Of a stretch of DNA of 34,979 bases, positions 12,781 to 32,635 are shown one piece after another. The stretch covers positions 1 to 34,979 of IMG/VR virus record IMGVR_UViG_3300034107_000557; one strand, written 5' to 3'. A program made the translations under genes and the position numbers. The notes below the pieces were generated by a model. It saw only the letters and a list, made by a program, of their open reading frames with translations, searched no databases and was not told the DNA's origin. The stretch's first letter is position 1; each line of letters starts with the position of its first letter. Source of the DNA: a virus. Its lineage: Duplodnaviria > Caudoviricetes.

Positions 12781-13098
12781 ATGGCAGACGCTTCACAGAC
12801 TCCCGGCGCGGTCGACCTCGGCTTCCGCCGTGGCGACGAGTTCCGCCGCGTCCTGACGGTCAACCTCAACCTGACCGGCTACACGCTCACCTGGGAGATC
12901 TACGGTCTCCGGGATGACGGCGTGAAGCTCTCGGGCTCCCTGTCGTTCTCGACACCTCCCCACGCTGTCGCCCTGATCATCACCGAGGCCCAGACCGGGA
13001 CGCTGGCCGTCGGCACCTACGGCTGGCGGGCCATCTGGATCGCCACGGGGTCGATCCAGCGGACCTTCCTTGAGGGCATCTGTGAGGTGACCCGGTGA
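12781..13098 (+). CDS. Putative fibre-attachment (Ig-like beta) virion protein
   Basis: RGD.F...NLTGYT...L..G.Y.W pattern common at the N-termini of phage fibre/baseplate proteins. Confidence 0.55.
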
Positions 13099-13832: not shown

Positions 13833-14278
13833 GCCTTCAAGCTCTCGCCGCAAAAATCGCAGAACCGCAGTACCGCGGAATGAGCGACCAACTCCTGGCC
13901 GACGCCGTCAACGGGCTCCGTGTGTCCGTCCGTCGCCCTGTTCCGACATGGCAAGTCCGGCAGACGGCAATCGAGGGCGGCTACTGGCCCGCTCTGATCG
14001 AGGCTCGGGAATCGACCACGCCCGCCGTCAGGGCTCTGGCGATCACCGTGTTGGCGTGGATCGATGACCAGTCAGGCACGATCCAGAGCGTCGATATGGA
14101 CCGGCCCGCCGTCGTCAACATGCGGGGCGCGCTCGTCCAGGCTGGCATCTGCTCGCAGGCCCAGGCCGACGCGCTGTCGGCTCTGGCCGATGCGTCGATC
14201 CCGTGGACCGAATCGGTGGGGCTGCCGGAAGTGGGTGTCGGCTTGGTAATCAACGCTCGGAGAATTGCGAATGGCTGA
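13829..14278 (+). CDS. Hypothetical virion-associated protein
   Basis: ATGA overlap with the collagen gene. Confidence 0.65.
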
Positions 14279-14771
14279 TCTCAAATTGGCATACGGCACC
14301 GCGAGCGATGTGACGATTACGCTGGCGTCGATGGCCACCGACACCAACCTCCTCACGGGGCGCGAGTCAGCAACCATCGACAACTCCGCCAACCTGTTCC
14401 TCGACTACCTCGTCAGCGGCAAGATTACCGCCGGCACCTCGCCAACGGCGGCAAGGTCAATCGAGGTGTGGGCTGTCGGGTCGTGGGACGGAACCAACTG
14501 GCCGGATGTGTTCGACGGCACCGAGTCCGCTGAGACGATCACTTCTGCCGACATCAAGGCCAGCGTCTGCCGATTTGTCGCCGCGATGGCAACGGCAAAC
14601 ACTAGCGACCGTGTGTACCACTTCGGGCCGGTGTCGCTTGCGGCTGCGTTTGGGGGCGTGTTGCCTCCAAAGGTCGTGTTGTTCATCACGCACTCAACCG
14701 GCGTGAACCTCAACAGTACCGCCGGGAATCACCAGATCCGGCTCCAGCCTGTCTATCAAACCATCAACTGA
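14271..14771 (+). CDS. Hypothetical beta-rich virion protein
   Basis: Thr/Ala-rich; GGAG SD; lies in the fibre cluster. Confidence 0.65.
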   Translation: MADLKLAYGTASDVTITLASMATDTNLLTGRESATIDNSANLFLDYLVSGKITAGTSPTAARSIEVWAVGSWDGTNWPDVFDGTESAETITSADIKASVCRFVAAMATANTSDRVYHFGPVSLAAAFGGVLPPKVVLFITHSTGVNLNSTAGNHQIRLQPVYQTIN

Positions 14772-15601
14772 TGCCACGCTACGAATACCCATCGCTCCGC
14801 CAGGGCCTCGTCGGCTGTTGGGTGCCGTCGCTCGGGGCCAGCGGTCTGACGCTGATCGACCGCAGCGGGCGGAACGCGCACGGAACGCTCACGAACATGG
14901 GCGGGCAGGACAACTGGCGGGCGAGCGGCAGCGGTGTAGCGATCAATTTCGACGGTACAAACGATTACGGTGTCGTGCCATCCGACTCGGCGTACCGATT
15001 TGCAACCGGACAGTCGTTTACTGTGTCTGCGTGGATTTATCCGGCGGTGAGCAAAAATCAGTCAATACTAAGTTTTCCATTAAATGGCTGGGACATTTAC
15101 GTTTCTTCTGCGAATTATCTGGAGTGGGCAAAAGCCGGGGTTGCCAATGCAGGATCGAGCGCAGCCACAAACGCCGTGACACTCAACAGATGGAGTCACA
15201 TCGCGGCCAAAAATATTGTCGGGTCAACAGTTGAGTTTTTCATAAACGGAGCGAGCGTGCGGACCGCCAGCTTTACGTCCACGTACAGCTACAGCCAGGA
15301 GCTGCGGATAGGGGCAACGCAGGGCGTATCTGTTGCTGGCTCTCCAGACCTGTTGGCGTGGAATGGCGCTCTCGACGACATCCGCATCTACAACCGCGAT
15401 CTCACCCTCGCCGAAATCCGCCTCCTCGCAAGCCGTCGCGGGATCGGGCTGTCGCCGCTGCCGGATCGGGCGGCTGGGTTGCCGCGGAAACTGAGCGTCA
15501 ACGTGGGAGGAACGTGGCGGGCGGCGGATGCATACGTCAACGTCGGCGGGGCGTGGAAGCTCGCCCAGGCCTCGACCAACGTGGCTGGAACGTGGCGGTG
15601 A
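14771..15601 (+). CDS. LamG / concanavalin-A-like domain receptor-binding protein
   Basis: FDGTNDY, FTVSAWI, W.HIA, ING, G.LDDIRIYNR.L..EI motifs; three C-terminal VNVGG.W repeats. Confidence 0.85.
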   Translation: MPRYEYPSLRQGLVGCWVPSLGASGLTLIDRSGRNAHGTLTNMGGQDNWRASGSGVAINFDGTNDYGVVPSDSAYRFATGQSFTVSAWIYPAVSKNQSILSFPLNGWDIYVSSANYLEWAKAGVANAGSSAATNAVTLNRWSHIAAKNIVGSTVEFFINGASVRTASFTSTYSYSQELRIGATQGVSVAGSPDLLAWNGALDDIRIYNRDLTLAEIRLLASRRGIGLSPLPDRAAGLPRKLSVNVGGTWRAADAYVNVGGAWKLAQASTNVAGTWR

Positions 15602-15604
15602 TCC

Positions 15605-15904
15605 ATGCCATCGAAGATTCCCTCCTGGCGACCCAAGCGGATGACGGTCACGACCAGGCCGACGAAGGAAGTTGCCCACTACCAGACCTCGGACTGGCGA
15701 GCACGACGGACGCGGATCCTCCTGCGGGACGCGATGCGGTGCTGCGAGTGCCGCCGAGCCGTGAGCGGACGCCAGGCCCATGTCGACCACCTGATCCCGC
15801 TCGAGGAGGGCGGGACGGACGACGACGCCAACCTCCGGACGATGTGTGAGCGGTGCCACGGGCGGAAGACCCGGGCGGAGCAGAGGCGGCGCGGAGTGAA
15901 CTGA
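15605..15904 (+). CDS. Terminase-associated HNH endonuclease (HK97 gp74-like)
   Basis: C..C, HVDH.IP...GG, NL..MC..CH..KT. Confidence 0.88.
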   Translation: MPSKIPSWRPKRMTVTTRPTKEVAHYQTSDWRARRTRILLRDAMRCCECRRAVSGRQAHVDHLIPLEEGGTDDDANLRTMCERCHGRKTRAEQRRRGVN

Positions 15905-15964
15905 AAAAAGCGAGTTGCCCACGGAGAAAAAGAAGGGACAACGGCCACCCACAAGGAGGTGGCC

Positions 15965-17095
15965 ATGCGTGTCTCGGCTTGTCAGTGCTGCGGGGAATCG
16001 ATCAATGCAGGGACTCGAGGGCCTGTCCCGATCAAGTGCGGGCCGTGTCTCGGGCGACGACGACCAGGCGGGCCGCCACTGCCGAAGAAGCCCAGGCTAA
16101 GGAAACCAACCAGGGAGCGGATTAGGAGCGACCAATTCACGTTCCTTCCAGGAAGAATCAAGTCGGAGTGCGGGCATTGCAGGAAGACGCTGTGGCTGTG
16201 CCCAGGAAAACACGCCAAGCACAGCCGTCATTTTTGCAGCAGGCATTGTCAATGGAGCGTAAGGAAGACGCCAGAGGAGCGGATCAGGAGTGATCGGTTT
16301 ACGTTCGTCCCTGGGAGGATTCAGTCGGAATGCGGGCACTGCGGGAAGACGCTGTGGATTGGACCGAAGGAACACGCGAGGAGCCCGAGCCACTTCTGTG
16401 GGAGAGAGTGCCGAGGTCTCGGATCACGCTACGCCGTCCCTCACCGATACGAGTGCGTCCGGTGTGGCAAGCAATGTTCAATGCAGGGGAATCCACGGCA
16501 GAAGATGAAGGGGCTCTACTGCTCACGGAAGTGCGCTGGGGCAACGCGAGGAGAAAAGAAGTCAGCAGAACACGCGGTTCTCCTTTCCTGGAAAGATCTT
16601 GGTTCGTGGTTCCATGCGTGGGGCCAGCAAGAGATCGATCCACGCGCCATAGCCCTGGAGCAAATGCTATTTCCTTCAGCCAAAAGGCTGCACCGGATCA
16701 GGCTTCTTCGGCAGTGTGCCGATTGCGGTGGCCCCAGGGGCAGCGAGAAACGTAGGTGCAGTCGTTGCCGATTGATCAGGAAGAAGAAGGTAGGCAGGGA
16801 AAACGGCAAGCTACGCACCCGATGCAAACGCTTTGGCGTCGAGTTCGATAGCAAGGTAACTAGGCTTGCCGTCTGCAATCGAGACGGATGGATCTGCGCC
16901 ATCTGTGGAGTCAAGACGATCAAGGCCACAAGCGCAAGCAACCCTCACCCGAGAGAAGCGACGTTGGACCACATCACTCCGCTCTCGCGGCGGACCAAAG
17001 GCAACACATGGGACAACGTCCAGTGTGCGTGCCGTCGCTGCAACTGCTACACGAAGCGAGACCGAGTAACTGTGTCCCAGAGGCGGATGTTCTAG
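15965..17095 (+). CDS. Large HNH endonuclease with Zn-binding repeats (homing-type)
   Basis: Multiple CxxC..FCS..C units; C-terminal RDGWIC.IC, TLDHITP, N.Q..C..CN. Confidence 0.8.
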   Translation: MRVSACQCCGESINAGTRGPVPIKCGPCLGRRRPGGPPLPKKPRLRKPTRERIRSDQFTFLPGRIKSECGHCRKTLWLCPGKHAKHSRHFCSRHCQWSVRKTPEERIRSDRFTFVPGRIQSECGHCGKTLWIGPKEHARSPSHFCGRECRGLGSRYAVPHRYECVRCGKQCSMQGNPRQKMKGLYCSRKCAGATRGEKKSAEHAVLLSWKDLGSWFHAWGQQEIDPRAIALEQMLFPSAKRLHRIRLLRQCADCGGPRGSEKRRCSRCRLIRKKKVGRENGKLRTRCKRFGVEFDSKVTRLAVCNRDGWICAICGVKTIKATSASNPHPREATLDHITPLSRRTKGNTWDNVQCACRRCNCYTKRDRVTVSQRRMF

Positions 17096-17205
17096 GCTTA
17101 CAAAAAAGCCAGGGTACCGTTCGGGAAACCCCTGAAAACAGCCCAAAACCCCAGGCCTTGCCTGCGTGTGCGTCCTGCGGGTTTTGAAAATCCTGGAGAG
17201 GTCAG

Positions 17206-17685
17206 ATGGGATCGCGTGGCCCTGCCCCAAAGCCGTCAAGTGAGCGTTCCGCGATCGGTCGGAACACCCTCCGCCGCAAGGTCCGCGCGCCAAAGCCGAC
17301 CGCGGTGGCGATGCCGGCAAGCGTGAAGGCCGACAGGGTGGCCGCCGGTTACTGGAAGGCCCACGCCCCGGCGCTGATCACCGCGCGCCGGTTGCGGCCC
17401 GACTTGGCGGAAGCCTTCGGCCTCTGCTGCCTGCTGAAATCCGAGATGGACGCCATGGCCGTCGAGCTCTCCACCCAGGAGCGGACGACCACGACGGAGA
17501 AGGGGGCCTACGCCAACCCTCTGGTCAAGATCCTGAGAGACACGAGGCGCGACTGGCTTGCCCTGGCGAGAGACTTCGGTATGACCGCTGCATCCGATGC
17601 CCGCATTCCGCAGGACGCCCCCGATGTCGAAGAGTCCAAAGAGGACGCCGCGCTCCGCCTCCTCACCGTCCCGAAGCGATCGTGA
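17206..17685 (+). CDS. terS: Terminase small subunit (P27-like)
   Basis: MG.RGP.PKP N-terminus, NPLV, FGMT...ARI; precedes the large subunit. Confidence 0.88.
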   Translation: MGSRGPAPKPSSERSAIGRNTLRRKVRAPKPTAVAMPASVKADRVAAGYWKAHAPALITARRLRPDLAEAFGLCCLLKSEMDAMAVELSTQERTTTTEKGAYANPLVKILRDTRRDWLALARDFGMTAASDARIPQDAPDVEESKEDAALRLLTVPKRS

Positions 17686-19243
17686 CCGGCCCGAGTGGGT
17701 CGAGGGCTACCACTTCGACGCCGCTGCCGCTGATCGCCCTTGCCAGTTCGTCGAGACGCTCTGCCGCGTCCCGTCTCGAGACGGTGGACCGGCCGAGCCC
17801 ATGCGGTTGATCGAGTGGCAGAGGGAGCGAGTCATCCGGCCCCTGTTCGGATGGAAACGGGAGGACGGTCGGCTCCGCTACCGCCGCGGGTGTGTCTTCG
17901 TCCCGAAGAAAAACGGGAAGAGTTTCCTGATGGCGGCGGTGGCCCAGTACATCCTCTGTGGTCATGCCCCGATCTCCGACGTTTACCTCGCCGCCGTCGA
18001 CCGGCTCCAGGCCCGAGAGATTTACCGGGTGGTCGCCAAGTTCATCAGCGCTTCCCCGCAGCTGTCGAAGCTCCTCGAGGTGATCGACTCAAAGTCCCTG
18101 ATCAGGAACCGCGATCACGGGAACGTCTTGCGGTGTTTGTCGGCCGACGCATACCGGAACGAAGGCTTGAACGGCAGCGTGATCATCGACGAGATCCACG
18201 CCCACAAGTCCGACCAACTGATCAGCGCCCTGACCTACGCCACGCGCGCCACACCCAACGGCGTGATCCTGGCAATCTCGACGGCTGGAGACAACCGGAA
18301 CAGCGTTGGCTACCAGTGGTGGCGGGACGCCGAGCTCGTCCTGGCCGACCCGAAGTCCAACCCGTCTTTCATGGGCGTGATCTACGCGGCCGACCCCGAG
18401 GATCCGCGAGGGTTCGGGGATCCCGCCGTGTGGCGCGAGGCCAACCCGTCGATGGGTGTGACGTTCCAAGAGGACGAGTTCGCGGCCGACTATCAGGACG
18501 CCTTGACCGATCCGCGGAAGATGGGCCGCTGGCTTCGGTATTCCTTGAATTGCTGGACGGAAAAGGACGCCCGCTGGTGGCACGGGGACGAGTTCACCAA
18601 ATGCCAAGCCGATCCGGTCGAGCCCCTCGAGGGCCGCTCCTGTTGGGTCGGGCTCGACCTGGCTGATCACGACGATCTGACGGCGGCGGTGTTTCTGTTC
18701 CGATCCGCCGACGGCAGCTTCGACGCCGAGCTCCTGGCGTGGGTTCCCGAGGAAGGGATGATCGAGCGAGAGAAGCGGGACAACGTCCCGTATTCCTCCT
18801 GGGTGCGGGATGGCTGGCTTCGCGTCACCGAGGGGAGCCGGATCGACCAGGAGCGAGTCCATTCCGACATCATGGCTTTCCTCGAGGGCCACGAGTGCCG
18901 CGGGGTCGGCGGTGATCCGTGGCACCTCGACTGGATCGCCACGCGGATGCAGGCCGACGGTCTCGAGGTCCACAAGGTCAGGCAGTCGATTGGCTACCTG
19001 ACCGGCCCCGCCAAGATGCTCGAAGACCTCGTGAAGACCGGCCGACTGCGCTACCGCTCCCCGATCATGTCCTGGGCATCGAACAACGTCTGTATTTGGG
19101 AGGACATGAACGGCAACATCCGCCCCGACAAGGCGAAGTCTTCCGAGAAGGTCGACCCGATCTTCGCCCTGATCAACGCCCTCGCCCTGGCCTCCACCGA
19201 CGCCGAGCCCGAGTCCTCCGGATTCTCCCTGGTCTCCCTGTAA
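17597..19243 (+). CDS. terL: Terminase large subunit (start may be 17624)
   Basis: Walker A PKKNGKS, Walker B IIDEIH, ISTAG, ANPS, GLDLA, KVDP nuclease motifs. Confidence 0.95.
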   Translation: MPAFRRTPPMSKSPKRTPRSASSPSRSDRDRPEWVEGYHFDAAAADRPCQFVETLCRVPSRDGGPAEPMRLIEWQRERVIRPLFGWKREDGRLRYRRGCVFVPKKNGKSFLMAAVAQYILCGHAPISDVYLAAVDRLQAREIYRVVAKFISASPQLSKLLEVIDSKSLIRNRDHGNVLRCLSADAYRNEGLNGSVIIDEIHAHKSDQLISALTYATRATPNGVILAISTAGDNRNSVGYQWWRDAELVLADPKSNPSFMGVIYAADPEDPRGFGDPAVWREANPSMGVTFQEDEFAADYQDALTDPRKMGRWLRYSLNCWTEKDARWWHGDEFTKCQADPVEPLEGRSCWVGLDLADHDDLTAAVFLFRSADGSFDAELLAWVPEEGMIEREKRDNVPYSSWVRDGWLRVTEGSRIDQERVHSDIMAFLEGHECRGVGGDPWHLDWIATRMQADGLEVHKVRQSIGYLTGPAKMLEDLVKTGRLRYRSPIMSWASNNVCIWEDMNGNIRPDKAKSSEKVDPIFALINALALASTDAEPESSGFSLVSL

Positions 19244-19279
19244 CTTCACCGCCACGGGCCCGCCCTGTCCCATGCTGCC

Positions 19280-20701
19280 ATGGGACTATTCGACCTCATT
19301 CCGTTCGCGCGATCCCGGCCCCAGCCCACGCCCCCGGCGGTGGAGCTCCGCGGTCTGTCCGATGGCTCCGGGCCTTGGTCGGCGTGGATCTCGCCCGACG
19401 CGGTGACGCCCGAGGTTGCCGTGAGGACCACGGCAATTCTGTCGTGTGTGCGGTTCCTGAGTCAGGCCGTGGCGTCGATGCCGCCGCGGGTGATCCGCAC
19501 CACGCCCGACGGGCGGAAGTCTGCGGCCGTCGACCTCCCCTGCTATTCCGTTCTCACCGACCGGCCCAACTCGACACAGTCGCTCTACGAATGGATTGAA
19601 TCGACGATCTACCACACGGCCTTGTGGGGCAACGGGTACTCCCGGATCGTCCCCGGTGTCGACGGTGGCTTCTGCTCCGCCCTCGAGCTCCTCCACCCGA
19701 GCCGGATGGATCCGCGGCGGATGTCCGACGGGAGCATCGGTTACCGCTACCTGTATCCCAACGGCTCAGGCCCGCAGGGCCAGACCGGCTGGGTTCCGTT
19801 CAGCCAGGACGAGATCCTCCACGTTCGATGGATCTCCGACAACGGGATTAAGGGCCTCGTTCCCTCGACCTTGTGCAACACGAGCGTGGCCCTGGCGAGA
19901 GAGTTAGACATCGCGGCCCGGGCATTTTGGAGCAACGGCGCGCGTCCCGACGTTGTGATCGAGACCGAGGAGAGCCTGAACCAGCCGGCCATCGACGCAT
20001 TCCGCGCCCAGTGGCGGGAGATCTACGGCGGCTCGAGGAACCGCGGCGGGGCCGCGATCCTGCCAAAGAAGGCCCAACTCAAGACGATCGAATCAAACAG
20101 CAACGAAGCCTCCGAGTTCAGCCAACTTCGGCGGGATGTCACCGCGGAGTGTGCCACGATCTACGGCGTTCCCGGATCGCTGGTCGGCGTCCGCGAGGCG
20201 ATGAAATACGCCACCACCGAGCAAGAGCATCTGTCGGCCCAGGTGTGGTGCCTGACCCCCTGGGAGATGCGTCTCGAGGGAGCGGTCAACCGGACCATCC
20301 TTTCCCCGGTGGTCAGCGGCCCGCAGTACGCCGGCTGCAAATACCGCGTCGACAATCGCGGTCTGCTTCGCGGTGACAGCGCCGCCCGCGGGGCCCTGTA
20401 TGACGTCCTCGCCAAGTGGGGCGCGATGACCCCGGCGGAGATGCGTGACCTCGAGGACTTCCCCGAGCTCGACGAACCCGCCGCCAAGGAAACCTACATC
20501 CAGAGCGGCTTCGTCCCGCTCCGTGAGGCGGCCGACTCCTCGCTCTCCGAGGCCCAGGTCTCCAGCCTCCTGGCCGTCCTGGCCGCCGTCTCCGCGGGGA
20601 CGCTGGCCGCCCCTGCGGCCGAGGCCGTCATCGCCGCGGCCTACCCGACCCTGTCCGATTCCGCGGCCACCATTGTCGCCGGCGCAAGGGGGACCACATG
20701 A
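19280..20701 (+). CDS. HK97-family portal protein
   Basis: PNSTQS, GNGY, EILHVR, NGARP, YGVP, MTPAE.R..E motifs; follows terL. Confidence 0.93.
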   Translation: MGLFDLIPFARSRPQPTPPAVELRGLSDGSGPWSAWISPDAVTPEVAVRTTAILSCVRFLSQAVASMPPRVIRTTPDGRKSAAVDLPCYSVLTDRPNSTQSLYEWIESTIYHTALWGNGYSRIVPGVDGGFCSALELLHPSRMDPRRMSDGSIGYRYLYPNGSGPQGQTGWVPFSQDEILHVRWISDNGIKGLVPSTLCNTSVALARELDIAARAFWSNGARPDVVIETEESLNQPAIDAFRAQWREIYGGSRNRGGAAILPKKAQLKTIESNSNEASEFSQLRRDVTAECATIYGVPGSLVGVREAMKYATTEQEHLSAQVWCLTPWEMRLEGAVNRTILSPVVSGPQYAGCKYRVDNRGLLRGDSAARGALYDVLAKWGAMTPAEMRDLEDFPELDEPAAKETYIQSGFVPLREAADSSLSEAQVSSLLAVLAAVSAGTLAAPAAEAVIAAAYPTLSDSAATIVAGARGTT

Positions 20702-21432
20702 GCATCGAATACCGGACGCATGACGCCGACGGTGACGAGATCGAGACGCGGTTCCTCGTGGCAGACCTCGCCCCGGTCGGCGTGGAAGAGCGCGAGGACG
20801 GCCCGCCGACGATCTCCGGCATGGCCCCCCCGTGGGATTCCTGGTCCGAGGATCTCGGCTTCCGGGAGAAGTTCGACCGCGGGGCCTTCGCTGATGTCCT
20901 CAAGAGCCGATCGCTCGATGTCGTCCTGGCGTGGAATCACGACGAGTCCTTCCCCCTCGGACGGACGAAAAACAAGACGCTCGACCTGGCCGAAGGGGAC
21001 AAGGGGCTCGACTACCGAGGCCGACCGCCCCAGCCCTCGGGCCGTGTCGACGAGTACCTGACCCTGATCCGGGGCGGATACGTCGCCGGTTCTTCGTTCG
21101 CCTTCACGGTCAAAGCCGACCCGAAGCACGAATCGTGGGCCACCGACGAGCGTGGCAACATCACCCGCACCATCCACCGCGTGTCGGGCCTCTACGACGT
21201 TTCCGTGGTGACTCGCCCGGCCTACCCCCGGTCCACCGTCGCCCTCCGTCGGCGTGACCTGTTCGCGGCCTCGAACCTCACCGAGGCCGAGCGCCGGCAG
21301 ATCGTCGAGCGTGAGGCCGACGACCAGGCCGACGCGATCCGCAAGGCCGCCGCCGATCGGAAGAAGCTCGACGCGCTGATCGGGGCCCGAGCGGCCACCG
21401 CCCTCGCGAGGATGAAAGCCAATGGCCTCTGA
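20698..21432 (+). CDS. HK97-family prohead protease
   Basis: FRE....GAF, NHD, LGRT, G.SF.F, L.DVSVVT.PAY motifs. Confidence 0.92.
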   Translation: MSIEYRTHDADGDEIETRFLVADLAPVGVEEREDGPPTISGMAPPWDSWSEDLGFREKFDRGAFADVLKSRSLDVVLAWNHDESFPLGRTKNKTLDLAEGDKGLDYRGRPPQPSGRVDEYLTLIRGGYVAGSSFAFTVKADPKHESWATDERGNITRTIHRVSGLYDVSVVTRPAYPRSTVALRRRDLFAASNLTEAERRQIVEREADDQADAIRKAAADRKKLDALIGARAATALARMKANGL

Positions 21433-21577
21433 CCATCGCTGCCGCTGCGGTGAACGGATGAAGATCCGCACATCGAAGCGGAGCGGGGATTCCGCGGTCC
21501 AGTATCTGCGATGCACCTGCGGGGCAGCTGCCCGCGTGGCTGTTCCGGCCCGAGACATCTGGAGACGCAAGAGATGA
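21422..21577 (+). CDS. 51-aa Zn-ribbon protein, Ogr/Delta-like (not in ORF track)
   Basis: MASDHRCRCGERMKIRTSKRSGDSAVQYLRCTCG...; overlaps both neighbours. Confidence 0.6.
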   Translation: MASDHRCRCGERMKIRTSKRSGDSAVQYLRCTCGAAARVAVPARDIWRRKR

Positions 21578-21933
21578 ACCCGGAACAGAAGCTCACCGCC
21601 GCCTGCCTGGCCTTCGTCGCAAGCGCCCGGCTGAAGGCCGCCAACGGTCTGACCGTGGCGGAGTTCGGCTTCCTCGTCGTCGAGCTCCTCCGCCTGGCCG
21701 TGACCGGCCTCGAGGAGATCCCGGCCGATGGCCCGGCAAAGAAGGCCTGGGCCCTCGGTGTGATCGGCAACCTGTTCGACGCCGTTGCTGGCTTCGCGGT
21801 CCCGATCTACCTCCAGCCGTTCTGGATCCTGGCCCGGCCTGCGGTTCGGGCCCTGGTGCTGGCCGCTGCTGGCGGGGCGCTCGAGCAGATCCTGACGCTC
21901 ACCCGCGCCGCCGCCCCGGAGCCCGTCGCATGA
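21574..21933 (+). CDS. Hydrophobic hypothetical protein
   Basis: ATGA coupling on both sides; amphipathic helices. Confidence 0.7.
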   Translation: MNPEQKLTAACLAFVASARLKAANGLTVAEFGFLVVELLRLAVTGLEEIPADGPAKKAWALGVIGNLFDAVAGFAVPIYLQPFWILARPAVRALVLAAAGGALEQILTLTRAAAPEPVA

Positions 21934-22547
21934 CGACCGCCCTCGTCCTCGCCGCCGCTGCGGTGGCCTACCTTCTCTGCACCCGCCCAGCGGTCGCGCC
22001 CGCGCTGCCGCAACTGCCGCCACTCTCGCCCATCATTCCGCCCGGCATCATGCCGTTGGGGATGCCAGGGGCAGCGGCAGGAGGCGGCGGCCCGCACCCG
22101 CTCACGCTCCTGGCGATCCTCGCCGCCGGCGCGATGATCGCGTTCTCGATTCGGGAAAATGGAACGCCGCCCCCCGCCCCCGGCCCCGCGCCGGTCGTCG
22201 GGCTCGATCTCCGGGGACGATTCGTCGGGCCGGATGCCGCCGCCGACGCCGCGACCACTGCCGCCCTCCTCGAGGAGTTGGCCGGGCAGATCGAATGGGA
22301 TGGCCAGCAGGCGGAGCCGCGACTCCGCACCGGGGCAGCGTTTGACGATCTGCGCCGCGCCGCTCGGGAGTTGCGATGCCGTGGCGTCTCGCTCGGGGCT
22401 CGGCAGCCCGCCGTCCGTGATGCGATCAAAGCCTTCCTCGACGCCCAGGTTGGGACCGATGGCGGGCCGGTGGACGCCGGGAAGCGGGCCGGCTGGGTCG
22501 CTGCGTTTCGCTCCGTCGCCCAGGCCGCGGCGGAGGCCAGCCGATGA
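21930..22547 (+). CDS. Membrane-anchored hypothetical protein
   Basis: Two hydrophobic segments separated by Pro-rich linkers, then a helical domain. Confidence 0.7.
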   Translation: MTTALVLAAAAVAYLLCTRPAVAPALPQLPPLSPIIPPGIMPLGMPGAAAGGGGPHPLTLLAILAAGAMIAFSIRENGTPPPAPGPAPVVGLDLRGRFVGPDAAADAATTAALLEELAGQIEWDGQQAEPRLRTGAAFDDLRRAARELRCRGVSLGARQPAVRDAIKAFLDAQVGTDGGPVDAGKRAGWVAAFRSVAQAAAEASR

Positions 22548-23683
22548 CGCAACGGAAGCAGATCTGGACGATGTCCGCGGTCGGCTTCGTGATCGTCGCC
22601 GCCATGCTGGGGGCGCTCGTCGAGCGTCTCACGCACCGTGTCGCCGCGCGCGTCGAGGCCCGGTTCGGCTGGCAAGCCGACATCATCGGGGCAGATGAGT
22701 TTGTTTCCGCGATGGGCCGCGAGGGCGTGTTCTCTTCCGCGGCCCCCGATGCGATGGCGGTGCCGATCGGCCAAGACGTTTTTCTCTGGCGCGCGGCCGA
22801 CAAGGCCAGCCGCAAGCGCTACGGCAAGCCCTTCTCCGTCAGCAATCAAGCCTCCGTCGGCTCATGTGTCGCGCATGGTGCCCAGCACGCGATTTTCCTT
22901 GCAGAGGCCGCCGCATGGGACGCAGGACTCCGGGCCGATGTTCCGCTCCGCCCCTCGACGCCCTCGATCTATGGCGGTTCCCGCGTCGAGGCCAGGGGCA
23001 GGCCCGGAGACGGGCGGCAACCCTACGGCGGATTCTCGGACGGCAGCACTGGATTCCACGCCGCGAAGTGGGTGAGGGACTGGGGCATCGTCTATCAGAG
23101 GCCCTATCCCGATTTTGGCTTCGACTTGACGAATGCGCAGGGGCTCGAGAAGGAATGGGGCGCGTACGGCAACGGCGGCCGGGATGACGAGGGCCGATTC
23201 GACGCCGAGGCAAAGAAGCACCCCATCCAGAAGGTGGCCCGAGTTACCACCTGGACAGAATTGGTCCAGGCGATGTCCTCCGGGCTGCCGGTGACGATTG
23301 CCAGCAACGTCGGATTCCAGGCGAGCGCCCGCGATGCCGACGGCTTCATCGCCGCCAATGGCACTTGGCCCCACCAGATGTGCATCGGCGGGCTCAGGTG
23401 GGCGAAGAACGCACCGCCCGGCACGAAGCAACCGCGGGACGGTGTCCTCGTGTTGAACAGCTGGGGGGAATCGTGGCCGCCGCAAGCCGGCGGCACGTTC
23501 CCGGCCGATCAGCCTGCCGGCACGTTCTGGATCACGCAGGCCGACGCCGAGCGAGTCCTTGCCGCTGGCGATTCGTGGGCCTATTCCACAACCGCCAATT
23601 GGGAGCCGGTGCCGATCGATCACGGCCAGTGGTTCCAGCCCGCACCAGAGGCCGTCGCCAATACCTACTCCCTCGCTCCCTGA
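22544..23683 (+). CDS. Membrane-anchored papain-like (C1-type) cysteine peptidase
   Basis: N-terminal TM; NQ..VGSCVAH (oxyanion Gln, catalytic Cys), HQMCIGG (His), LNSWG (Asn), G.FWI. Confidence 0.85.
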   Translation: MTQRKQIWTMSAVGFVIVAAMLGALVERLTHRVAARVEARFGWQADIIGADEFVSAMGREGVFSSAAPDAMAVPIGQDVFLWRAADKASRKRYGKPFSVSNQASVGSCVAHGAQHAIFLAEAAAWDAGLRADVPLRPSTPSIYGGSRVEARGRPGDGRQPYGGFSDGSTGFHAAKWVRDWGIVYQRPYPDFGFDLTNAQGLEKEWGAYGNGGRDDEGRFDAEAKKHPIQKVARVTTWTELVQAMSSGLPVTIASNVGFQASARDADGFIAANGTWPHQMCIGGLRWAKNAPPGTKQPRDGVLVLNSWGESWPPQAGGTFPADQPAGTFWITQADAERVLAAGDSWAYSTTANWEPVPIDHGQWFQPAPEAVANTYSLAP

Positions 23684-23690
23684 GGCCGCC

Positions 23691-23963
23691 ATGATCGTCG
23701 ACCGCAAGCTCGTCTCCACCGTCCTCGTCGCCCTGGCCCTCGGCTGGTGGCTCGGCTCCAGCCCGTCGTCACCGATCAACCCGACGCCGCAACGGCCGGT
23801 CCTCGCCGCCGTCGGCCGGCTGGCCCGGATCGCCGCCCGGCTCGGCTTGTGGGCCGCGATGGCCGCCGAGCCGCCGCCGCAGGCCGACGGCCGGCAGTTG
23901 GTTCACGCGCCGTCGGTTGATGCCGACGGGCATCGGGTGGTTGACCACGGGGAGGGCTGGTGA
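23691..23963 (+). CDS. Small membrane protein
   Basis: N-terminal TM (VLVALALGWWL) and a second amphipathic helix. Confidence 0.65.
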   Translation: MIVDRKLVSTVLVALALGWWLGSSPSSPINPTPQRPVLAAVGRLARIAARLGLWAAMAAEPPPQADGRQLVHAPSVDADGHRVVDHGEGW

Positions 23964-24181
23964 TGGACACGACAGCCGTTTTCTTGGTTCTGTTCGCTAC
24001 GGCCTACGCGGTCTTTGGATGGGGGCTTTCCCATTGGGGCTCTGACCGTGTTGAAGTGCTCACCGCTGTGATCGCTGGCGGATTCGCAACGGCCACCCTC
24101 ACGGTTTTGGGTCTCGTCTTTGCGGCGCTGAACGTGTGCTCGTGGCTCTGGCAGCACGTTCGTTTAGAGGTGACGTTATGA
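23960..24181 (+). CDS. Two-TM small membrane protein (holin-like topology)
   Basis: 73 aa, two long hydrophobic stretches, GTGATG dual start. Confidence 0.5.
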   Translation: MMDTTAVFLVLFATAYAVFGWGLSHWGSDRVEVLTAVIAGGFATATLTVLGLVFAALNVCSWLWQHVRLEVTL

Positions 24182-24435
24182 CCCTCTACCGCTCCCTCCT
24201 CGCCCTGTTGGCCAGCCTCTCCGCCGATCCGCAAGAGATCGACCGCGAGCCGCCGCGCGCCGCCGCGGCCGTCGCCGCGGCGTATGCTTCGCTCGCCCCG
24301 GAAACGGCACCGACGCCGCCCCCGGCACCGGCGAAGTGTGGGTGCGGCGGGAAGTGCCAGGGCGGCATCTATCGGCCCGACGGCCGGATCGAAATGCGAT
24401 GTGAGAAGGACTGCCCCTGCGGCTGTCGGAAGTAA
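24178..24435 (+). CDS. Small exported Cys-rich protein
   Basis: Hydrophobic N-terminus, Pro linker, CGCGGKC...DG....C..DCPCGC. Confidence 0.65.
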   Translation: MTLYRSLLALLASLSADPQEIDREPPRAAAAVAAAYASLAPETAPTPPPAPAKCGCGGKCQGGIYRPDGRIEMRCEKDCPCGCRK

Positions 24436-24531
24436 GACGGTTGTACGTTACCACCGAAACTTCACCGGCATCGGCTTCTCCGTGATCGTGCGTCATCGTC
24501 GACACCGCACACCGCCCCACGGAGATCCCCG

Positions 24532-25749
24532 ATGAATCCCGTCAGCAACCGCCGCAAGCTCCAGGACGAGGCATCGAAGATCCACACGGACATCGAGGCT
24601 CTCCGCGCCGCCGCCCCCGAGTCCGACCAGGAACAGGCCGACAACCTGGGAAGGCTCGGTGAGCTCGAAGCCCGGGCCGACTCCATCGCGGTCGAGCTCG
24701 AGCGGGAGAACGCGACCGACGCCCGGCTTGCCCGCCTCCGCACCGCTGCCAGCAACGTGGCCGAGCATCGAGGCTCCGACGATCCGGAGAAGGCGAAGGC
24801 CCAGCAGCTGGCCCAGTTCGGCGGTTCGCGATACTCCGACGAGGCCCGTCTGCTTCGGATCTCCCAGTACCTCCGCGGTCTCCGCGATGGCACGGTCCAG
24901 GCCCGGGCGCTCTCCGAGACCGGCTCTGCCGGGGCGGGGCCCGAGTTCAACCCGCCGACGGACCTGTACAACGAAATCGTGAACATCATCAACCGGCAGT
25001 CCATCGGGGCCCAGCTGGCCACGACGATCGCGACGAACAGCCGGACGGTCGACGTTCCTAAGCTCGGCCTGGTGACCGCCGACTTCGTGGCCGAGAACAC
25101 CGCGCCCACCGCGCAGGATCCGACGACGTCGAAGGTCTCGCTGACGGTGTTCGACGCGAAGGCCGAAGTCGACATCAGCAACAACCTCCTCGACGACTCG
25201 CCGCTCGATGTCGCCGGGTACGTCACGCAGGCCATCGGCAACGGCTTCGCGAAGTTCGCGGATACCGTCTGGCTCCAGGGCCATGTCGGCAACTCGATCG
25301 CCGGTCTTTACGCCGGAATCTCCGCTGGCCGGAAGGCCACCGTGGCGGCCGGCTCGGTGATCTCCGCGGCCAACGTTGGGACCGTCATCGGCTCGATCGA
25401 TCCGATGGTCATGGGCGATTTCGCCTGGGTCGTCAGCGGTGCCGGCTGGGGCCAACTCCTCGCCCTCGAGGGGACGCGGTTCGTCCAGCCGATGGTCGGC
25501 GGCGGGGCTCCCATCCCGACCGTGTGGGGCGTGCCGGTCTACAAGTCGGACCTCCTCCCGGCCAACGTCCTCGCGGTCTACGGGGCGTTCAAGATGACGA
25601 CCGCGATCGCCATGCGGAAGGAGCTCTCGGTCACGCCGCTCCGTGAGCTCAAGGCCCGCGAAAACCAGACGGTCTACCTCGCTCACGGCCGCTTCGGCCT
25701 GGCGAACCACGACCCGTCCTACGCCGGTGCCATCCTCCAGGGCACCTGA
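24532..25749 (+). CDS. HK97-fold major capsid protein
   Basis: Coiled-coil delta domain; V.E, IS..LL.DS..D, WGVPV, R.G motifs. Confidence 0.92.
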   Translation: MNPVSNRRKLQDEASKIHTDIEALRAAAPESDQEQADNLGRLGELEARADSIAVELERENATDARLARLRTAASNVAEHRGSDDPEKAKAQQLAQFGGSRYSDEARLLRISQYLRGLRDGTVQARALSETGSAGAGPEFNPPTDLYNEIVNIINRQSIGAQLATTIATNSRTVDVPKLGLVTADFVAENTAPTAQDPTTSKVSLTVFDAKAEVDISNNLLDDSPLDVAGYVTQAIGNGFAKFADTVWLQGHVGNSIAGLYAGISAGRKATVAAGSVISAANVGTVIGSIDPMVMGDFAWVVSGAGWGQLLALEGTRFVQPMVGGGAPIPTVWGVPVYKSDLLPANVLAVYGAFKMTTAIAMRKELSVTPLRELKARENQTVYLAHGRFGLANHDPSYAGAILQGT

Positions 25750-25780
25750 TCCCCTGGCCCCTGACTCCCGCCCGTCTCCA

Positions 25781-25822
25781 GCGGCCGGGCGAGGCTCACC
25801 CCTCGCCCGGCCGCCCCCCTTT
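25781..25822 (+). terminator. Strong hairpin after capsid gene (terminator/attenuator)
   Basis: GCGGCCGGGCGAGG-ctcacc-CCTCGCCCGGCCGC, perfect 14-bp stem; weak U tract. Confidence 0.55.
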
Positions 25823-25835
25823 CCGGAGTTCTCCG

Positions 25836-26036
25836 ATGCCGACCGTCTCGATCAAGTTCCGCCAGGACTATGGCGACCACGCCGCCGGGGCCGTCGTCCA
25901 ACTCCCCGAGGCGATGGCCCGCCACCTCGTCGACTGCGGCCTGGCCACGTTCGTCGCCACCCCCGAGCCGGCGGAGCTTCCCGTCGAGCGAGCCGATGCC
26001 CCGAAGCCCAAGCACATCCAACGCGCCACCAAGTAA
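25836..26036 (+). CDS. Small capsid-linked protein
   Basis: GGAG SD; G..V.L....A..L...G.A pattern. Confidence 0.65.
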   Translation: MPTVSIKFRQDYGDHAAGAVVQLPEAMARHLVDCGLATFVATPEPAELPVERADAPKPKHIQRATK

Positions 26037-26048
26037 CTCGGGGGGCCC

Positions 26049-26672
26049 ATGCTCAAAGTCCGCTCCCTGAAGCAACTCTCCGAGCCCGAGGTCGAGCCCG
26101 TGTCGCTGGCGGCAGCGAAGGGGCAGGTGGGCCTGTTGCCAGAGCAATCCGACGACGACGCTCTCCTGCTGCGCTTGATCTCCACCGGCCGCCGGCTGGT
26201 GGAGCAGCGCCTCGGGACGACGCTGGCAACCCGGCAGTTCAGGGCCACCATCGTCGGTGACCTCGACAACCATGGCCACCACCACGGCCTCTACCACCAG
26301 CATTACCACCACCGGGACGAGCTCCGCATTCCGCTCCCGCCGCTCCTGGTGGACGGGACGCACCCGCTGGCCATCACCGTGGGCGGGGTGGCCGTCAACC
26401 CAGCCACCTACACGATCGACTCCGACTCCACCCCCGCGGTGATCCGGTTCACCGCCTGGCCGACGTTCGACGATGACGCCCCGCTCGTGGTGACGTTCTG
26501 GGCAGGGCCCGCGTCGGGCGGCCGGATCGAGCCGGCGGCCGAGTCCGTGATCCTGCTGTTCGTCGCTCACGGGTTCAAGCACCGCGAGGGGGTGGTTCCC
26601 GGCAGCGTCAACGAGCTCCCCATGGGCATCGAGACGCTCCTGGCGTCGATCTCGATCACGGGGGCCTACTGA
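26049..26672 (+). CDS. Head-tail connector (gp6/gp15-like)
   Basis: EPVSL..AK, DDALL..LI..., ILL.VAH.F.HRE motifs; His-rich insertion. Confidence 0.85.
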   Translation: MLKVRSLKQLSEPEVEPVSLAAAKGQVGLLPEQSDDDALLLRLISTGRRLVEQRLGTTLATRQFRATIVGDLDNHGHHHGLYHQHYHHRDELRIPLPPLLVDGTHPLAITVGGVAVNPATYTIDSDSTPAVIRFTAWPTFDDDAPLVVTFWAGPASGGRIEPAAESVILLFVAHGFKHREGVVPGSVNELPMGIETLLASISITGAY

Positions 26673-27013
26673 TGGGCGACCGCACCGCCGCCGGCATGAA
26701 AGTCCATACCTTCCGCTTCGAGCGGCCGGTGGAGACGCGGAACGCCGTCGGTGAGGTGTCGTCGATCTCTTGGGTGAAGATCGCCCGACGCCGGGGCTCC
26801 ATCGAGCAAGTCGGCTACAGCGAGACGCAGGACCAGGGCCAGACCTCCGGGCAGGCCTCCTACCTGATCGTCGTCCCCTCGGTCCCAGGCCTCGACGGTT
26901 CGTCCCGGATCATCTGGGAAAGCCGGCTCGGCCGGATCCTGGTGGTTTCCTCGGTCGTCGGGGATGACGCCGACCCGGAGCAGACCATCCAGGCCTCGGA
27001 GAAGAAGACATGA
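26672..27013 (+). CDS. Head closure protein (SPP1 gp16-like)
   Basis: Position and N..GE...W motif. Confidence 0.75.
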   Translation: MGDRTAAGMKVHTFRFERPVETRNAVGEVSSISWVKIARRRGSIEQVGYSETQDQGQTSGQASYLIVVPSVPGLDGSSRIIWESRLGRILVVSSVVGDDADPEQTIQASEKKT

Positions 27014-27564
27014 GCGCCCCGGGCCTCTTCTTCTCCGCGTTCTTCTCTGAGAAGTCCAATCGCGACATCGATGACCTGATCCGCGCCTACGCCAAGCTTC
27101 CCGGCTCAGTGGCCCGGAAGCACCTCAAGGCCGCGATCCGGCGATCGATCAAGCCATTCACGCCGGCGCTCAAGGCCGCGACACCCCGCGGAAAAACCGG
27201 CAACCTACGGCGATCGGTCATCACCGTCGTGAAGTTCGGCACCAAGGTCTCCCGCGGGGCCAACGAGGCTTTCCGCGGAACCGCCATCGGGATCGTGGGC
27301 TTCAGCCGGAAGGGCAAGAAAAAGAATCAGAAGGGGGATCACAGCGTCCTCGTCGAGGCCGGCAGCAAGCCGCGCCGCCGGAAGGGAATCCGGGGCAACT
27401 CCTTCAGCGCTGGCCAGGGCTCCACCGGGACCATGCCCCCGAAACATATGTTGCGCGACACGCTCGCCGCCAAGCGGTCAGGCATCCTGTCGAACATGGA
27501 AATCGAAATGGGTGTGAGCCTCGAGCGGGCCACCCAGGAAGCAGCCCGCCGCGCCTCCCTCTGA
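27010..27564 (+). CDS. HK97 gp10-like neck protein
   Basis: TP..KTGNLRRS, LVE.G, MPP.H motifs. Confidence 0.78.
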   Translation: MSAPGLFFSAFFSEKSNRDIDDLIRAYAKLPGSVARKHLKAAIRRSIKPFTPALKAATPRGKTGNLRRSVITVVKFGTKVSRGANEAFRGTAIGIVGFSRKGKKKNQKGDHSVLVEAGSKPRRRKGIRGNSFSAGQGSTGTMPPKHMLRDTLAAKRSGILSNMEIEMGVSLERATQEAARRASL

Positions 27565-27581
27565 CTCCCCGGAGATCCATC

Positions 27582-27722
27582 ATGGACACCGTTCTCGTCC
27601 GATTCACGAATCCCTGGGGCCGCTACCTCCCGGGCGATTCCCTCTTCGTCGATGCCGCCCTCCTGGCTGAGCTCCTGGCCGCTGGCGTGATCGAGGCCGA
27701 CCCGGCCGGGGAGGCTGAATGA
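27582..27722 (+). CDS. 46-aa protein resembling ORF 25836 (not in ORF track)
   Basis: MDTVLVRFTNPWGRYLPGDSLFVDAALLAELLAAGVIE...; GGAG SD; ATGA overlap. Confidence 0.6.
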   Translation: MDTVLVRFTNPWGRYLPGDSLFVDAALLAELLAAGVIEADPAGEAE

Positions 27723-28114
27723 GCAGCCCCGAAGCCTGGCTCAAGGCGACGATCGAGACCGCCGCCGGGGCTCTGGCCTGGCCGGTGGCAGTGTCGGAGT
27801 CTGCCGGCCTGCCCTTCGTCGTCTACTCCCGCGAATCGACCGAGCGGCCCCTCCAGACGAGCGGCCTGACCGGGTTTGCGGATGGGGAGTTCACGCTCGA
27901 GGTGTGCGGGGCCACATGGACATCGGCCCGGACTGTGGCGGATGCGATCGTGGCCGCGGTCCAGAACTTCACCGGCACTGCCCATGGGGCCATTATCGAC
28001 CACGTTCACGTTGGGAGTGATCGAGACGGCACCGCCGTCTATCTCACCGATGGCCAGGATCTGCCGTCCTATTTCGTGATCGAGCTGCAAATCTTCATCC
28101 GCTGGAGAGAGTGA
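27719..28114 (+). CDS. Tail terminator/completion protein
   Basis: LPFVVY motif, A..VADAI helix, position before tail tube genes. Confidence 0.75.
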   Translation: MSSPEAWLKATIETAAGALAWPVAVSESAGLPFVVYSRESTERPLQTSGLTGFADGEFTLEVCGATWTSARTVADAIVAAVQNFTGTAHGAIIDHVHVGSDRDGTAVYLTDGQDLPSYFVIELQIFIRWRE

Positions 28115-28116
28115 CA

Positions 28117-28470
28117 ATGCCCGCACTTCCCGCAGTCCTCGACACGATGCAGGGGCTCACGTTCTCCTTCAATTCCATCGAGTTCCGCGCCACGAACATC
28201 AAGCGGAAGGAAACCCGCCCGCTTGTCGATGTCTCCGACTGCTCCCAGGCCGCCGACTCGCTGCGGATTTATCAGGCCGAGCCACTCAAGGACGGCGACG
28301 AAATCAGCCTGGAATACTTCGGGAAGAATCCCCCGACCAAGGGCACGAAGTACGCGATCTCCTGCTCCGGTCTGGCGATCACCGGCAACGCCTTCTGTAC
28401 GGATGTCGAAGAGGGTGGCGCTGTCGGTGAGTACGTCAGGGGAACGGCCACCTTCAAGATCTCTGGCTGA
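28117..28470 (+). CDS. Tail tube-like protein 1
   Basis: VDVSD, L.DG.EIS, A.GE...GTATFKISG; position. Confidence 0.65.
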   Translation: MPALPAVLDTMQGLTFSFNSIEFRATNIKRKETRPLVDVSDCSQAADSLRIYQAEPLKDGDEISLEYFGKNPPTKGTKYAISCSGLAITGNAFCTDVEEGGAVGEYVRGTATFKISG

Positions 28471-28484
28471 ATGGGGGACGGTCC

Positions 28485-28865
28485 ATGACCGCTATCCCAT
28501 CCGCGCAAAACGTCTCCGTTTCCTTTGGCGGGGTCGCGCTCGGTGGCCTGATCGGATTCGACGAGCAATACTCCGCTGCGTCTCCGACCGACACCACCGG
28601 GGCCACCGCCACGATCGTCGGCAGTGGCGGCAACACGCGAGTGATCCGCCAAGTCGAGATCACCATGATCGAGCCCGGCTCGATCTCTTTCCGGTGTTGG
28701 GGGAATCCCCCCTTCGCCCGATCCGACATCGGCCTCTCGGCCACGCTGTCGTTCACCATCGCTGGCAACACGACCAGCTGGCCCGCCCAACTGGCAAACG
28801 TCCAGCGCGTCGGCTCTGCCGGTGAACTGATCCAAGGCTCCTATCAATTCCAGTTCATGGGGTAA
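28485..28865 (+). CDS. Tail tube-like protein 2
   Basis: TDTT, IEPGSIS, GE...GS..F...G; resembles the previous ORF. Confidence 0.6.
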   Translation: MTAIPSAQNVSVSFGGVALGGLIGFDEQYSAASPTDTTGATATIVGSGGNTRVIRQVEITMIEPGSISFRCWGNPPFARSDIGLSATLSFTIAGNTTSWPAQLANVQRVGSAGELIQGSYQFQFMG

Positions 28866-28867
28866 CG

Positions 28868-29233
28868 ATGCTCTCCCGCGACGATCTCCTCGGCCTTGAG
28901 GCCAACAAGACGGCCCCCCCGACGCGGCTCCATGTCGCCGCGTGGGGCGGGGATGTCTTCCTCCTGGATCCGACCGCCCAGGCCTATGACGAGTGGGCGC
29001 TGTGGTGCGAGAAGAACAAGGACAAAGCGGACCCCCCGTACCGGGCAAAGCTGGCGTCTCTCCTGCTCTGCGACGAGTCCGGGAAGCGGCTTTTCACCGG
29101 CGACGACGTCCAGACGCTTGCCGCCTGGAAGCCCGACGGGCTGACGGAGGTATGGAAGGTCGGCGTCGAGCTCCTCAAGGTCGACGACAAGGAGATCGAG
29201 GACCAGGCGGAAAAATCCGCGGCCAGCCCCTGA
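28868..29233 (+). CDS. Tail assembly chaperone (G)
   Basis: MLSRDD.L, WGG.V, LCDE.GKRLF; precedes tape measure. Confidence 0.82.
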   Translation: MLSRDDLLGLEANKTAPPTRLHVAAWGGDVFLLDPTAQAYDEWALWCEKNKDKADPPYRAKLASLLLCDESGKRLFTGDDVQTLAAWKPDGLTEVWKVGVELLKVDDKEIEDQAEKSAASP

Positions 29234-29544
29234 ACCTGTTTCTCGGGCGGCTGGCCCTGGCGTGTGGAGAGTGGGATGTCGAAACGCTGTCGAAGCGGAT
29301 CACGCTCCGACAGCTGAAATGGTGGATGGCCTTCTGGCGCGTCGAGCCCTTCGGGGACGAATGGGCGAGGTCGGGGAAATTGGCCGCGGTGACGGCGGCG
29401 GCCCAAGGGGCCAAAGTCGAGCCCGACTTCGAGGAAAAGTTCCTGCCGAGCTACCGCTCTCCGGTCCAGACCGAAGAGGAGTTGAAAGCCCAGCTGCGAC
29501 GGATCCCGTTTTTCGCAAAGCAGATGGAAGAGAAGGGAATCTGA
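29209..29544 (+). CDS. Tail assembly chaperone -1 frameshift extension (G-T)
   Basis: GGAAAAA at 29209-29215; -1 frame open to 29544 with LA......L..W.AF...EP.G motif. Confidence 0.75.
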   Translation, partial: GKIRGQPLNLFLGRLALACGEWDVETLSKRITLRQLKWWMAFWRVEPFGDEWARSGKLAAVTAAAQGAKVEPDFEEKFLPSYRSPVQTEEELKAQLRRIPFFAKQMEEKGI

Positions 29545-29545
29545 C

Positions 29546-32634: not shown

Positions 32635-32635
32635 G

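Follow-up and report, generated by a model that had tools for sequence, protein, structure and literature searches.

Introduction

The holin–endolysin–spanin cassette of phages is a compact, coupled and mobile late module, in which small membrane proteins surround one hydrolase whose export signal is optional. Lysis genes of this type are found before the terminase gene, as S-R-Rz/Rz1 in lambda, downstream of the tail genes, or, as in P2, between those for head and tail. Viral lysins with a papain-like fold are represented by the Pei enzymes (PeiW, PeiP and PeiR) of methanogen viruses, which act on a non-murein wall, the target being the peptide link of a glycan wall (PMC10791045). In this work, a block of five genes with the build and genome positions of a lysis cassette, centred on a papain-fold cysteine protease, is described in a 34,979-nucleotide (nt) stretch of viral DNA (Caudoviricetes; record IMGVR_UViG_3300034107_000557, positions 1 to 34,979), hereafter the window, which holds a temperate HK97-like siphophage as classified with PHROGs and Pfam. 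From sequence and fold comparison we are moderately confident that the block is a lysis module of planctomycete phages, whose protease, and not an endolysin directed at peptidoglycan, would open a disulfide-linked protein wall. What is shown here is the order and conservation of the genes, the fold and catalytic residues of the protease, the mobility of the block, the exclusion of nine endolysin families and the co-occurrence with hosts encoding YTV-repeat proteins.

The load-bearing polymer of the planctomycete wall is disputed, with lysozyme-sensitive sacculi (PMC4432640) on one side and dispensable peptidoglycan genes (PMC10632474) on the other, and the target through which a phage escapes is a direct read-out of what must be cut in a wall. 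If the lysis role is true, this would be a lysis route without a peptidoglycan hydrolase, common to unrelated phage lineages, whose substrate would name the load-bearing polymer; it would also provide a new enzyme class for phage lysis, a marker for assigning metagenomic phages to the Planctomycetia and a tool to open such cells. No description of the cassette was found in the open literature searched, subscription journals and bioRxiv supplements being outside its coverage.

Compared with the canonical cassette, the window module has neither a muralytic nor a wall-binding domain and no recognisable spanin, its holin is putative, and it includes a redox partner (a Cys-rich or thioredoxin protein), which to our knowledge is not known from canonical cassettes. 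Unlike the Pei enzymes, its protease belongs to a different family, with a structural match to PeiR much weaker than that to papain-like C1A proteases, and the proposed target is a wall protein of a diderm bacterium. The accessible passages of a further article on Pei enzymes (PMC12596118) mention neither planctomycetes nor papain. The module appears to work like a holin–endolysin cassette, from which the missing muralytic domain sets it apart, and its protease belongs to none of the Pei, CHAP and NlpC/P60 families.

A conserved module built around a papain-fold protease

Seven plus-strand open reading frames (ORFs) lie in the window between the S78 prohead protease gene and the major capsid gene, joined by 4-nt start/stop overlaps or, once, by a 7-nt gap. 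Conservation was scored with locally built hidden Markov models (HMMs) in 117 loci chosen by their protease plus the window, 118 sequences in total, many of which are near-copies, and many of the HMM misses coincide with contig ends. The features, with the number of sequences matched, are the following (aa, amino acids; TM, transmembrane).

20698..21432, + strand: S78 prohead protease, the phage's own maturation protease, left flank (PF04586, E 1.7e-31; phrog_80)
21422..21577, + strand: g1, 51 aa Zn-ribbon protein, of the head module and outside the cassette (weak Pfam Zn-ribbon matches only; HMM 22/118)
21574..21933, + strand: g2, 119 aa hydrophobic protein of four helices, candidate holin, core module (HMM 99/118)
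21930..22547, + strand: g3, membrane anchor(s), Pro-rich linker and conserved helical domain of ~115 aa, core module (HMM 107/118)
22544..23683, + strand: papain-fold (C1A-like) cysteine protease, 379 aa, core module (catalytic residues, fold match)
23691..23963, + strand: g5, 90 aa, hydrophobic segment at the N-terminus, amphipathic helix and conserved C-terminal HGxGW, core of the Pirellulales-type cassette (HMM 96/118)
23960..24181, + strand: g6, 73 aa two-TM protein, non-conserved passenger (HMM 3/118)
24178..24435, + strand: g7, 85 aa, signal-like start, Ala-rich helix and Cys-rich tail, core module (HMM 86/118)
24532..25749, + strand: HK97-type major capsid protein, right flank (PF05065, E 1.6e-27; phrog_10)

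By these profile counts, the conserved module is formed by five genes in the order g2–g3–protease–g5–g7. An earlier reading of this DNA, made from its letters alone (hereafter the sequence-only reading), had described the seven tightly coupled genes correctly and taken all of them as one cassette, of which these five stand, while g1 and g6 fall outside. The Zn-ribbon protein g1 goes with the head genes and was rejected as a cassette member, following the S78 gene whether the cassette comes next (31 of 32 loci) or not (11 of 17), that is in 42 of the 49 loci classified after 31 undecided ones had been left out; it is possibly a late regulator or assembly factor. The two-TM g6, which the sequence-only reading had called holin-sized, was rejected as the holin, being a passenger of low GC (0.58, with GC3 0.68, against 0.67–0.74 and 0.81–0.91 in the core genes) present in only three sequences.

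The papain-clan C1 motifs that the sequence-only reading had recognised in the protease are borne out, Q102, C108, H277, N305, S306 and W307 being invariant in 107 aligned sequences and the AlphaFold model (pLDDT 90.9) having the two-domain papain fold. Foldseek returned 270 matches to this model at E <= 0.001, among which xylellain of Xylella fastidiosa (3OIS; E 1.2e-10; VIA Z 21.7, rmsd 3.1, 243 residues aligned) ranks first by structure, followed by cathepsin zymogens and then by Clostridioides difficile Cwp84 (4CI7; Z 18.0), with PeiR far lower (Z 10.9). The structural alignment reaches into the zymogen pro-regions of C1A enzymes, and a pro-region is probable in the window protease too. 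By its modelled fold and its catalytic set the enzyme is C1A-like: xylellain, papain, the cathepsins and Cwp84 share both the fold and the Gln/Cys/His/Asn-Ser-Trp residues. It differs from them in sequence (17–18% identity) and in being phage-encoded, predicted to be anchored N-terminally and placed inside a conserved membrane-protein module. Cwp84 reportedly processes the S-layer of its own cell, whereas the window protease would destroy a wall.

At the sequence level, the window protease is unnamed by Pfam, PHROGs and NCBIfam and has no match to the Pei, CHAP and NlpC/P60 families in Pfam. It does not match PF00112, for which 6 of 65 relatives scanned score above the curated cut-off of 20.7 bits (P0303, P0312, P0328, P0333, P0349 and P0385). 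A search of PDB sequences returned nothing useful with the single sequence and at best E 0.22 with profile A1; profile A6 reaches E 1e-4 to 5e-3 against 3OIS and cathepsins. The window protease has 598 relatives among 8,000 scored candidates, and 1,675 clusters were obtained at 50% identity. No relative of it or of the representative P0304 was found among GenBank phages.

A protease of this fold could also be a new endolysin family within a lysis module, cutting, in the manner of CHAP, NlpC/P60 and archaeal Pei enzymes, the peptide or isopeptide cross-links of a thin peptidoglycan or its anchor to protein, an alternative that we hold to be unlikely. It gains from the resemblance of the model to PeiR and from the ability of Pei enzymes to lyse methanogens via isopeptide bonds (PMC10791045). 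Yet the fold is far closer to that of C1A proteases (Z 17–22), and the 65 relatives scanned are devoid of any wall-binding domain, the fused domain that does occur, in two representatives of the family, being thioredoxin.

Export types and inteins of the protease family

A TM segment is predicted at residues 7–25 of the window protease (hydropathy 2.09), and an N-terminal hydrophobic segment of at least 1.6 is present in 108 of 121 close sequences. In SAR (signal-anchor-release) endolysins, the N-terminal TM segment contains ~40–60% Gly/Ala/Ser; the corresponding value is 37% in the window protease and 37% as the family median, with at least 40% in 27 of 107 sequences. A simple heuristic applied to 150 representatives assigned 59 to a TM/signal type (5 lipobox-like), 7 to a Tat-like type and 64 to none, with 20 unclear, and the signal-less proteases sit near a hydrophobic protein of ~70 aa. 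The export of endolysins varies in a similar manner, an analogy that lends some support to a lysis function.

Active-site inteins are a pattern typical of essential genes. Inteins interrupt the protease at catalytic residues in 28 of the 150 representatives (within P0243–P0384, e.g., P0244, P0262 and P0287), 23 directly before the Cys and 6 directly after the His, with one protein, P0262, carrying both; their nature is backed by Pfam Hint and LAGLIDADG domains, and many of them contain a LAGLIDADG endonuclease. Such insertions at the catalytic Cys or His would likewise fit a lysis enzyme.

The existence of signal, lipoprotein-like and Tat-like forms could instead point to lysogenic-conversion cargo, i.e., an exported protease system serving the host in envelope remodelling, nutrition or superinfection exclusion, with lysis left to an unrecognised gene. 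The phage is temperate, with an integrase, and two copies in bacterial genomes (L404 and L407, see below) lie outside an evident prophage, both in line with cargo; we nevertheless judge it quite improbable, given that 64 of the 150 representatives have no export signal, that inteins occupy the active site, and that no alternative lysis gene was found. Moreover, translational coupling ties the genes into late operons on the coding strand, their GC3 is like that of core genes, and the block has been retained by unrelated phage types up to the 100–160 kb phages.

Mutual exclusion with peptidoglycan hydrolases

The window record is 99% complete according to CheckV, in agreement with the otherwise complete genome assumed by the sequence-only reading, and the lack of an endolysin that it had reported held in every search made: none was found among 60 ORFs with Pfam and PHROGs, among 30 ORFs with NCBIfam, or in six frames with nine peptidoglycan hydrolase or binding families (PF00959 at E 1e-3; PF01510, PF08291, PF13539, PF05838, PF01464, PF01520, PF00182 and PF01471 at E 1e-4). 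A tail-associated hydrolase was not detected in the window either.

The same nine families were searched in 65 virus records, 46 protease-bearing (2.70 Mb) and 19 protease-free controls chosen by terminase similarity (0.70 Mb); G013, whose protease gene is cut at the contig end and missed by the profile, was counted among the former. They matched none of the 46 protease-bearing records and 10 of the 19 controls (Fisher p 5e-7), or, at a completeness of at least 90%, 0 of 14 against 5 of 6 (Fisher p 4e-4), p-values that overstate independence because the records are related and many are partial. No relative carrying both the cassette and a standard lysis module was seen in this set. The control matches were M15_3 in G047 and G048, M15_4 in G051 and G052, Amidase_3 in G054 and G055, SLT in G057 and lysozyme in G053, G056 and G058. 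A papain-fold enzyme directed at peptidoglycan would fit the exclusion and the position of the module equally well; lysozymes or amidases would, however, be expected in at least some such phages if peptidoglycan were the barrier.

A mobile module and its placement

The cassette occupies different sites in different phages: after the tail genes (e.g., L023, L032 and L049), after RusA or just before the terminase (L094, L106, L223, L253, L276 and the plasmid pPLIM01), or in the head operon as in the window. The placements outside the head operon agree with sites at which lysis cassettes are known to lie. In 17 sister loci the capsid gene comes after the S78 gene with no cassette between them, and a quick tree built from 43 distinct S78 sequences accounts for the cassette-in state by one change, with support that is not strong (SH-aLRT 82). 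On these comparisons, the head-operon placement is specific to one clade and not a property of the system; since sister phages carry the block elsewhere, the splitting of the head operon, which the sequence-only reading had rightly seen in the window, reflects where one clade carries a mobile module.

The module is common to unrelated phage types, namely HK97-like phages, phages with SPP1-type or phrog_21-type portals and phages of 100–160 kb, and five of nine long contigs picked by the terminase group of the window carry the protease. In the phrog_21-portal prophages L408–L410 the block stands, independently, among head and tail genes. Signal-less relatives of the protease occur in phages of up to 163 kb; in these large phages the protease is preceded, in this order, by a hydrophobic protein of ~70 aa, a TM protein and a g3-like helical protein, and followed by an exported Cys-cluster/thioredoxin protein. 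Two large low-GC phages (L121:8413-8979 and L126:8310-8927) also encode, before the cassette, a TM and coiled-coil protein with an NGG motif and an end that looks PAS-like by eye, and one of these two proteins matches the phrog_15431 holin at E 0.1 only.

The location of the protease gene between the prohead protease and capsid genes in this clade could suggest that it matures the capsid or other virion proteins, which is barely credible in a phage that has a separate S78 protease and belongs to a group with 17 sister loci lacking the cassette at this site; the mobility of the module points the same way, and the predicted anchor would put the active site in the periplasm. The placement among head and tail genes, seen here and independently in L408–L410, together with the lack of a detected tail-associated hydrolase, could also be read as a sign of a virion-carried enzyme that opens the protein wall during entry. 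A lipid-free tailed virion would not carry membrane proteins. The hydrophobic N-terminus of 108 of the 121 close sequences, the membrane proteins encoded next to the protease and the position of the block outside the morphogenesis genes in sister phages make such an entry enzyme very improbable.

Hosts and the wall protein

Among 28 genome loci with the protease, 22 are labelled Planctomycetota, with prophage-like regions in Bremerella cremea and Blastopirellula marina among them, and the other 6 are contigs of metagenome-assembled genomes with other or no labels; the window phage likely infects planctomycete bacteria. The family was found in 12 of 401 sampled Planctomycetota genomes, where 8 of the 12 regions contain terminase, portal or capsid genes and 2 contain phage-like replication or methylase genes. 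YTV repeats (PF07639) are encoded in all 12 genomes with the protease and in 1 of 23 without it (p 1.6e-8), the latter being 13 first-listed genomes (E 1e-3) and 10 spread ones (E 1e-5), with p 2e-5 for the spread set alone.

A related protease is present on pPLIM01 (NC_014149.1), a 37-kb HK97-like phage-plasmid of Planctopirus limnophila, which may overlap the sample of 401 genomes and was not counted as independent. The protease gene lies just before the HNH-terminase and its product is 27% identical to that of the window by tblastn (HMM 71 bits), with the Gln, Cys, His and Asn aligned. In the segment PLIM_RS21795-RS21800-RS21805, a membrane/Pro-rich/helical gene and an exported gene flank it; as differences from the window, the three genes are annotated as hypothetical only, the block precedes the terminase, and the upstream functions seem fused in one gene. 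No endolysin is annotated on pPLIM01, and no lysis family was found among 21 of its ORFs scanned with PHROGs. The presence of the module in the harmless and genetically tractable strain P. limnophila DSM 3776 makes the question testable.

Cys-rich YTV proteins have been reported in wall preparations, and peptidoglycan genes are lost in most Planctomycetales (PMC8567305). In P. limnophila the mur genes are non-essential and a YTV protein belongs to an essential, planctomycete-restricted group (PMC10632474); none of the RefSeq tags given to genes of pPLIM01 was found in five supplements of that study, where older locus tags may be used. The exclusivity of YTV and a disulfide-bonded protein sacculus are restated elsewhere (PMC12673574, PMC2754498). 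The dispensability of the peptidoglycan genes in P. limnophila also argues against peptidoglycan as the substrate of the protease, and the lysozyme-sensitive peptidoglycan sacculi of the same species and of Gemmata obscuriglobus argue in its favour (PMC4432640).

Partner genes

The products of g2 to g7 are unnamed by Pfam, PHROGs and NCBIfam. The g2 protein, modelled with pLDDT 93.9, has three helices with a hydropathy of 1.5–1.7. Its homologue in L163 matches the phrog_6918 holin at E 0.0037, yet at E 0.107 in a six-frame search, and PF09682 (LL-H-type holin) is matched by 1 of 48 g2 members (E 0.083), the Atlas lead for g2 standing at 0.81. The window g2 itself matches neither family, and fold searches with its model gave generic helical bundles only (best Z 9.0) and, in BFVD, a best E of 0.1, with holin entries at just E 1.9–2.6. 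Among GenBank phages, no relative of the L163 homologue and only chance matches of the L016 homologue were found. Judged from these comparisons, g2 is a better holin candidate than g6, its likeness to LL-H-type holins being weak.

The most constant neighbour of the protease is g3, which weakly resembles the gene that precedes the protease in large phages of low GC (HMM E as low as 3e-4, in L119; hhalign E 0.0017, probability 15%). Atlas gave no usable match for its domain, and a complex prediction of this domain with the protease gave no answer (score 0.02) and was not used as evidence. The hydropathy of g5 peaks at 1.47. As for g7, which the sequence-only reading had described as exported and Cys-rich, the Cys-rich tail is evident; the window sequence has no hydropathy peak of at least 1.2, and the label "exported" derives from the N-terminus of its family. 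Distant g7 homologues add a thioredoxin domain, with a thioredoxin-type WCxxC motif in 32 of the 51 ORFs that lie downstream in distant loci (near-copies included) and matches to phrog_22 thioredoxin at E 0.0012–0.012 for L130, L106 and L121. These thioredoxin partners, together with the fusions to the protease, may speak for a lysis module that acts on disulfides.

Proposed mechanism of lysis

The wider proposal, that phages of Planctomycetia replaced the holin–endolysin pair by a module of protease and disulfide reductase dissolving a Cys-cross-linked protein sacculus, is one on which we are evenly balanced. In such a scheme the module would be expressed late, together with the virion genes, and the protease would be inserted by Sec as an anchored zymogen facing the periplasm, with the region ~40–75 as its pro-piece, while signal-less forms would be released through a holin. 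The collapse of the membrane might be timed by g2 in a holin-like way, a role for which the case is weak. The protein g7, or its thioredoxin-bearing homologues, could reduce wall disulfides or keep Cys108 reduced, and g3 and g5 could be membrane partners for activation or membrane disruption, both being candidates also for the breach of the outer membrane. The protease would then cleave Cys-rich wall proteins, with the YTV proteins as substrate.

The non-canonical lysis without a peptidoglycan hydrolase suggested by the sequence-only reading is thus favoured by the exclusion, by the lysis-type positions and by the YTV-encoding hosts, and is still inferred from sequence. Several observations, besides the relatedness of the records, weigh against it. 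The holin assignment of g2 is weak, and no recognisable spanin-like lipoprotein is encoded in the module of the window: a lipobox Cys was not seen by eye in the N-termini or consensus of g5 and g7, and no spanin family of Pfam, PHROGs or NCBIfam was matched in the window. In the exclusion test, GH108 and GH19 had no match anywhere, controls included, and the coverage of CHAP, NlpC/P60, M23, GH25 and PF11860 was confined to the window and ORFs selected from five other records, which were compared with the whole of Pfam. Two controls, G046 (82% complete) and G060 (100%), lack the protease and gave no endolysin match either, so that such an absence is not unique to protease phages. In the genome regions L404 and L407, the large ORFs scanned include no phage hallmark, and the protease and partner genes there, outside an evident prophage, are remnants or domesticated copies. 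The link with YTV may reflect host range (class Planctomycetia) and not substrate, and peptidoglycan could still be the target because planctomycete sacculi are lysozyme-sensitive.

Genome of the window and further observations

The ends of the window (1-2667 and 32314-34974) are a repeat of 2,678 bp with 90% identity and 22 gaps, and the unit genome is therefore ~32.3 kb. Most probably, two strain variants were joined here when a circular genome was over-assembled; a tandem double prophage is a less likely alternative. Genes recognised with PHROGs and Pfam include those for an integrase, a replication initiator, RusA, HNH, terminase, portal, the S78 protease, capsid, head-tail connectors and tape measure. 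A sigma-70 scan found no promoter-like site in window positions 15000-30000, where terminator-like sites are at chance level.

The tape measure gene (29546-31015) encodes just 489 aa, which implies a very short non-contractile tail, and a lytic domain was not detected in its product. Collagen-repeat, LamG and other tail-fibre-like genes lie at 12763-15601, between RusA and the HNH-terminase and apart from the tail operon; in sister phages this place is taken by the cassette. Among the replication genes, two ORFs (10342-10701 and 10772-11230) have signal-like N-termini; the former has relatives in L201 and L276, no family match and a Cys-rich end, which we take to resemble a short CAP/SCP-type domain. 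The control record G048 carries, at L294:8285-12231, a 7-deazaguanine pathway (QueC, FolE, PTPS and radical SAM) together with an amidoligase/GATase cluster.

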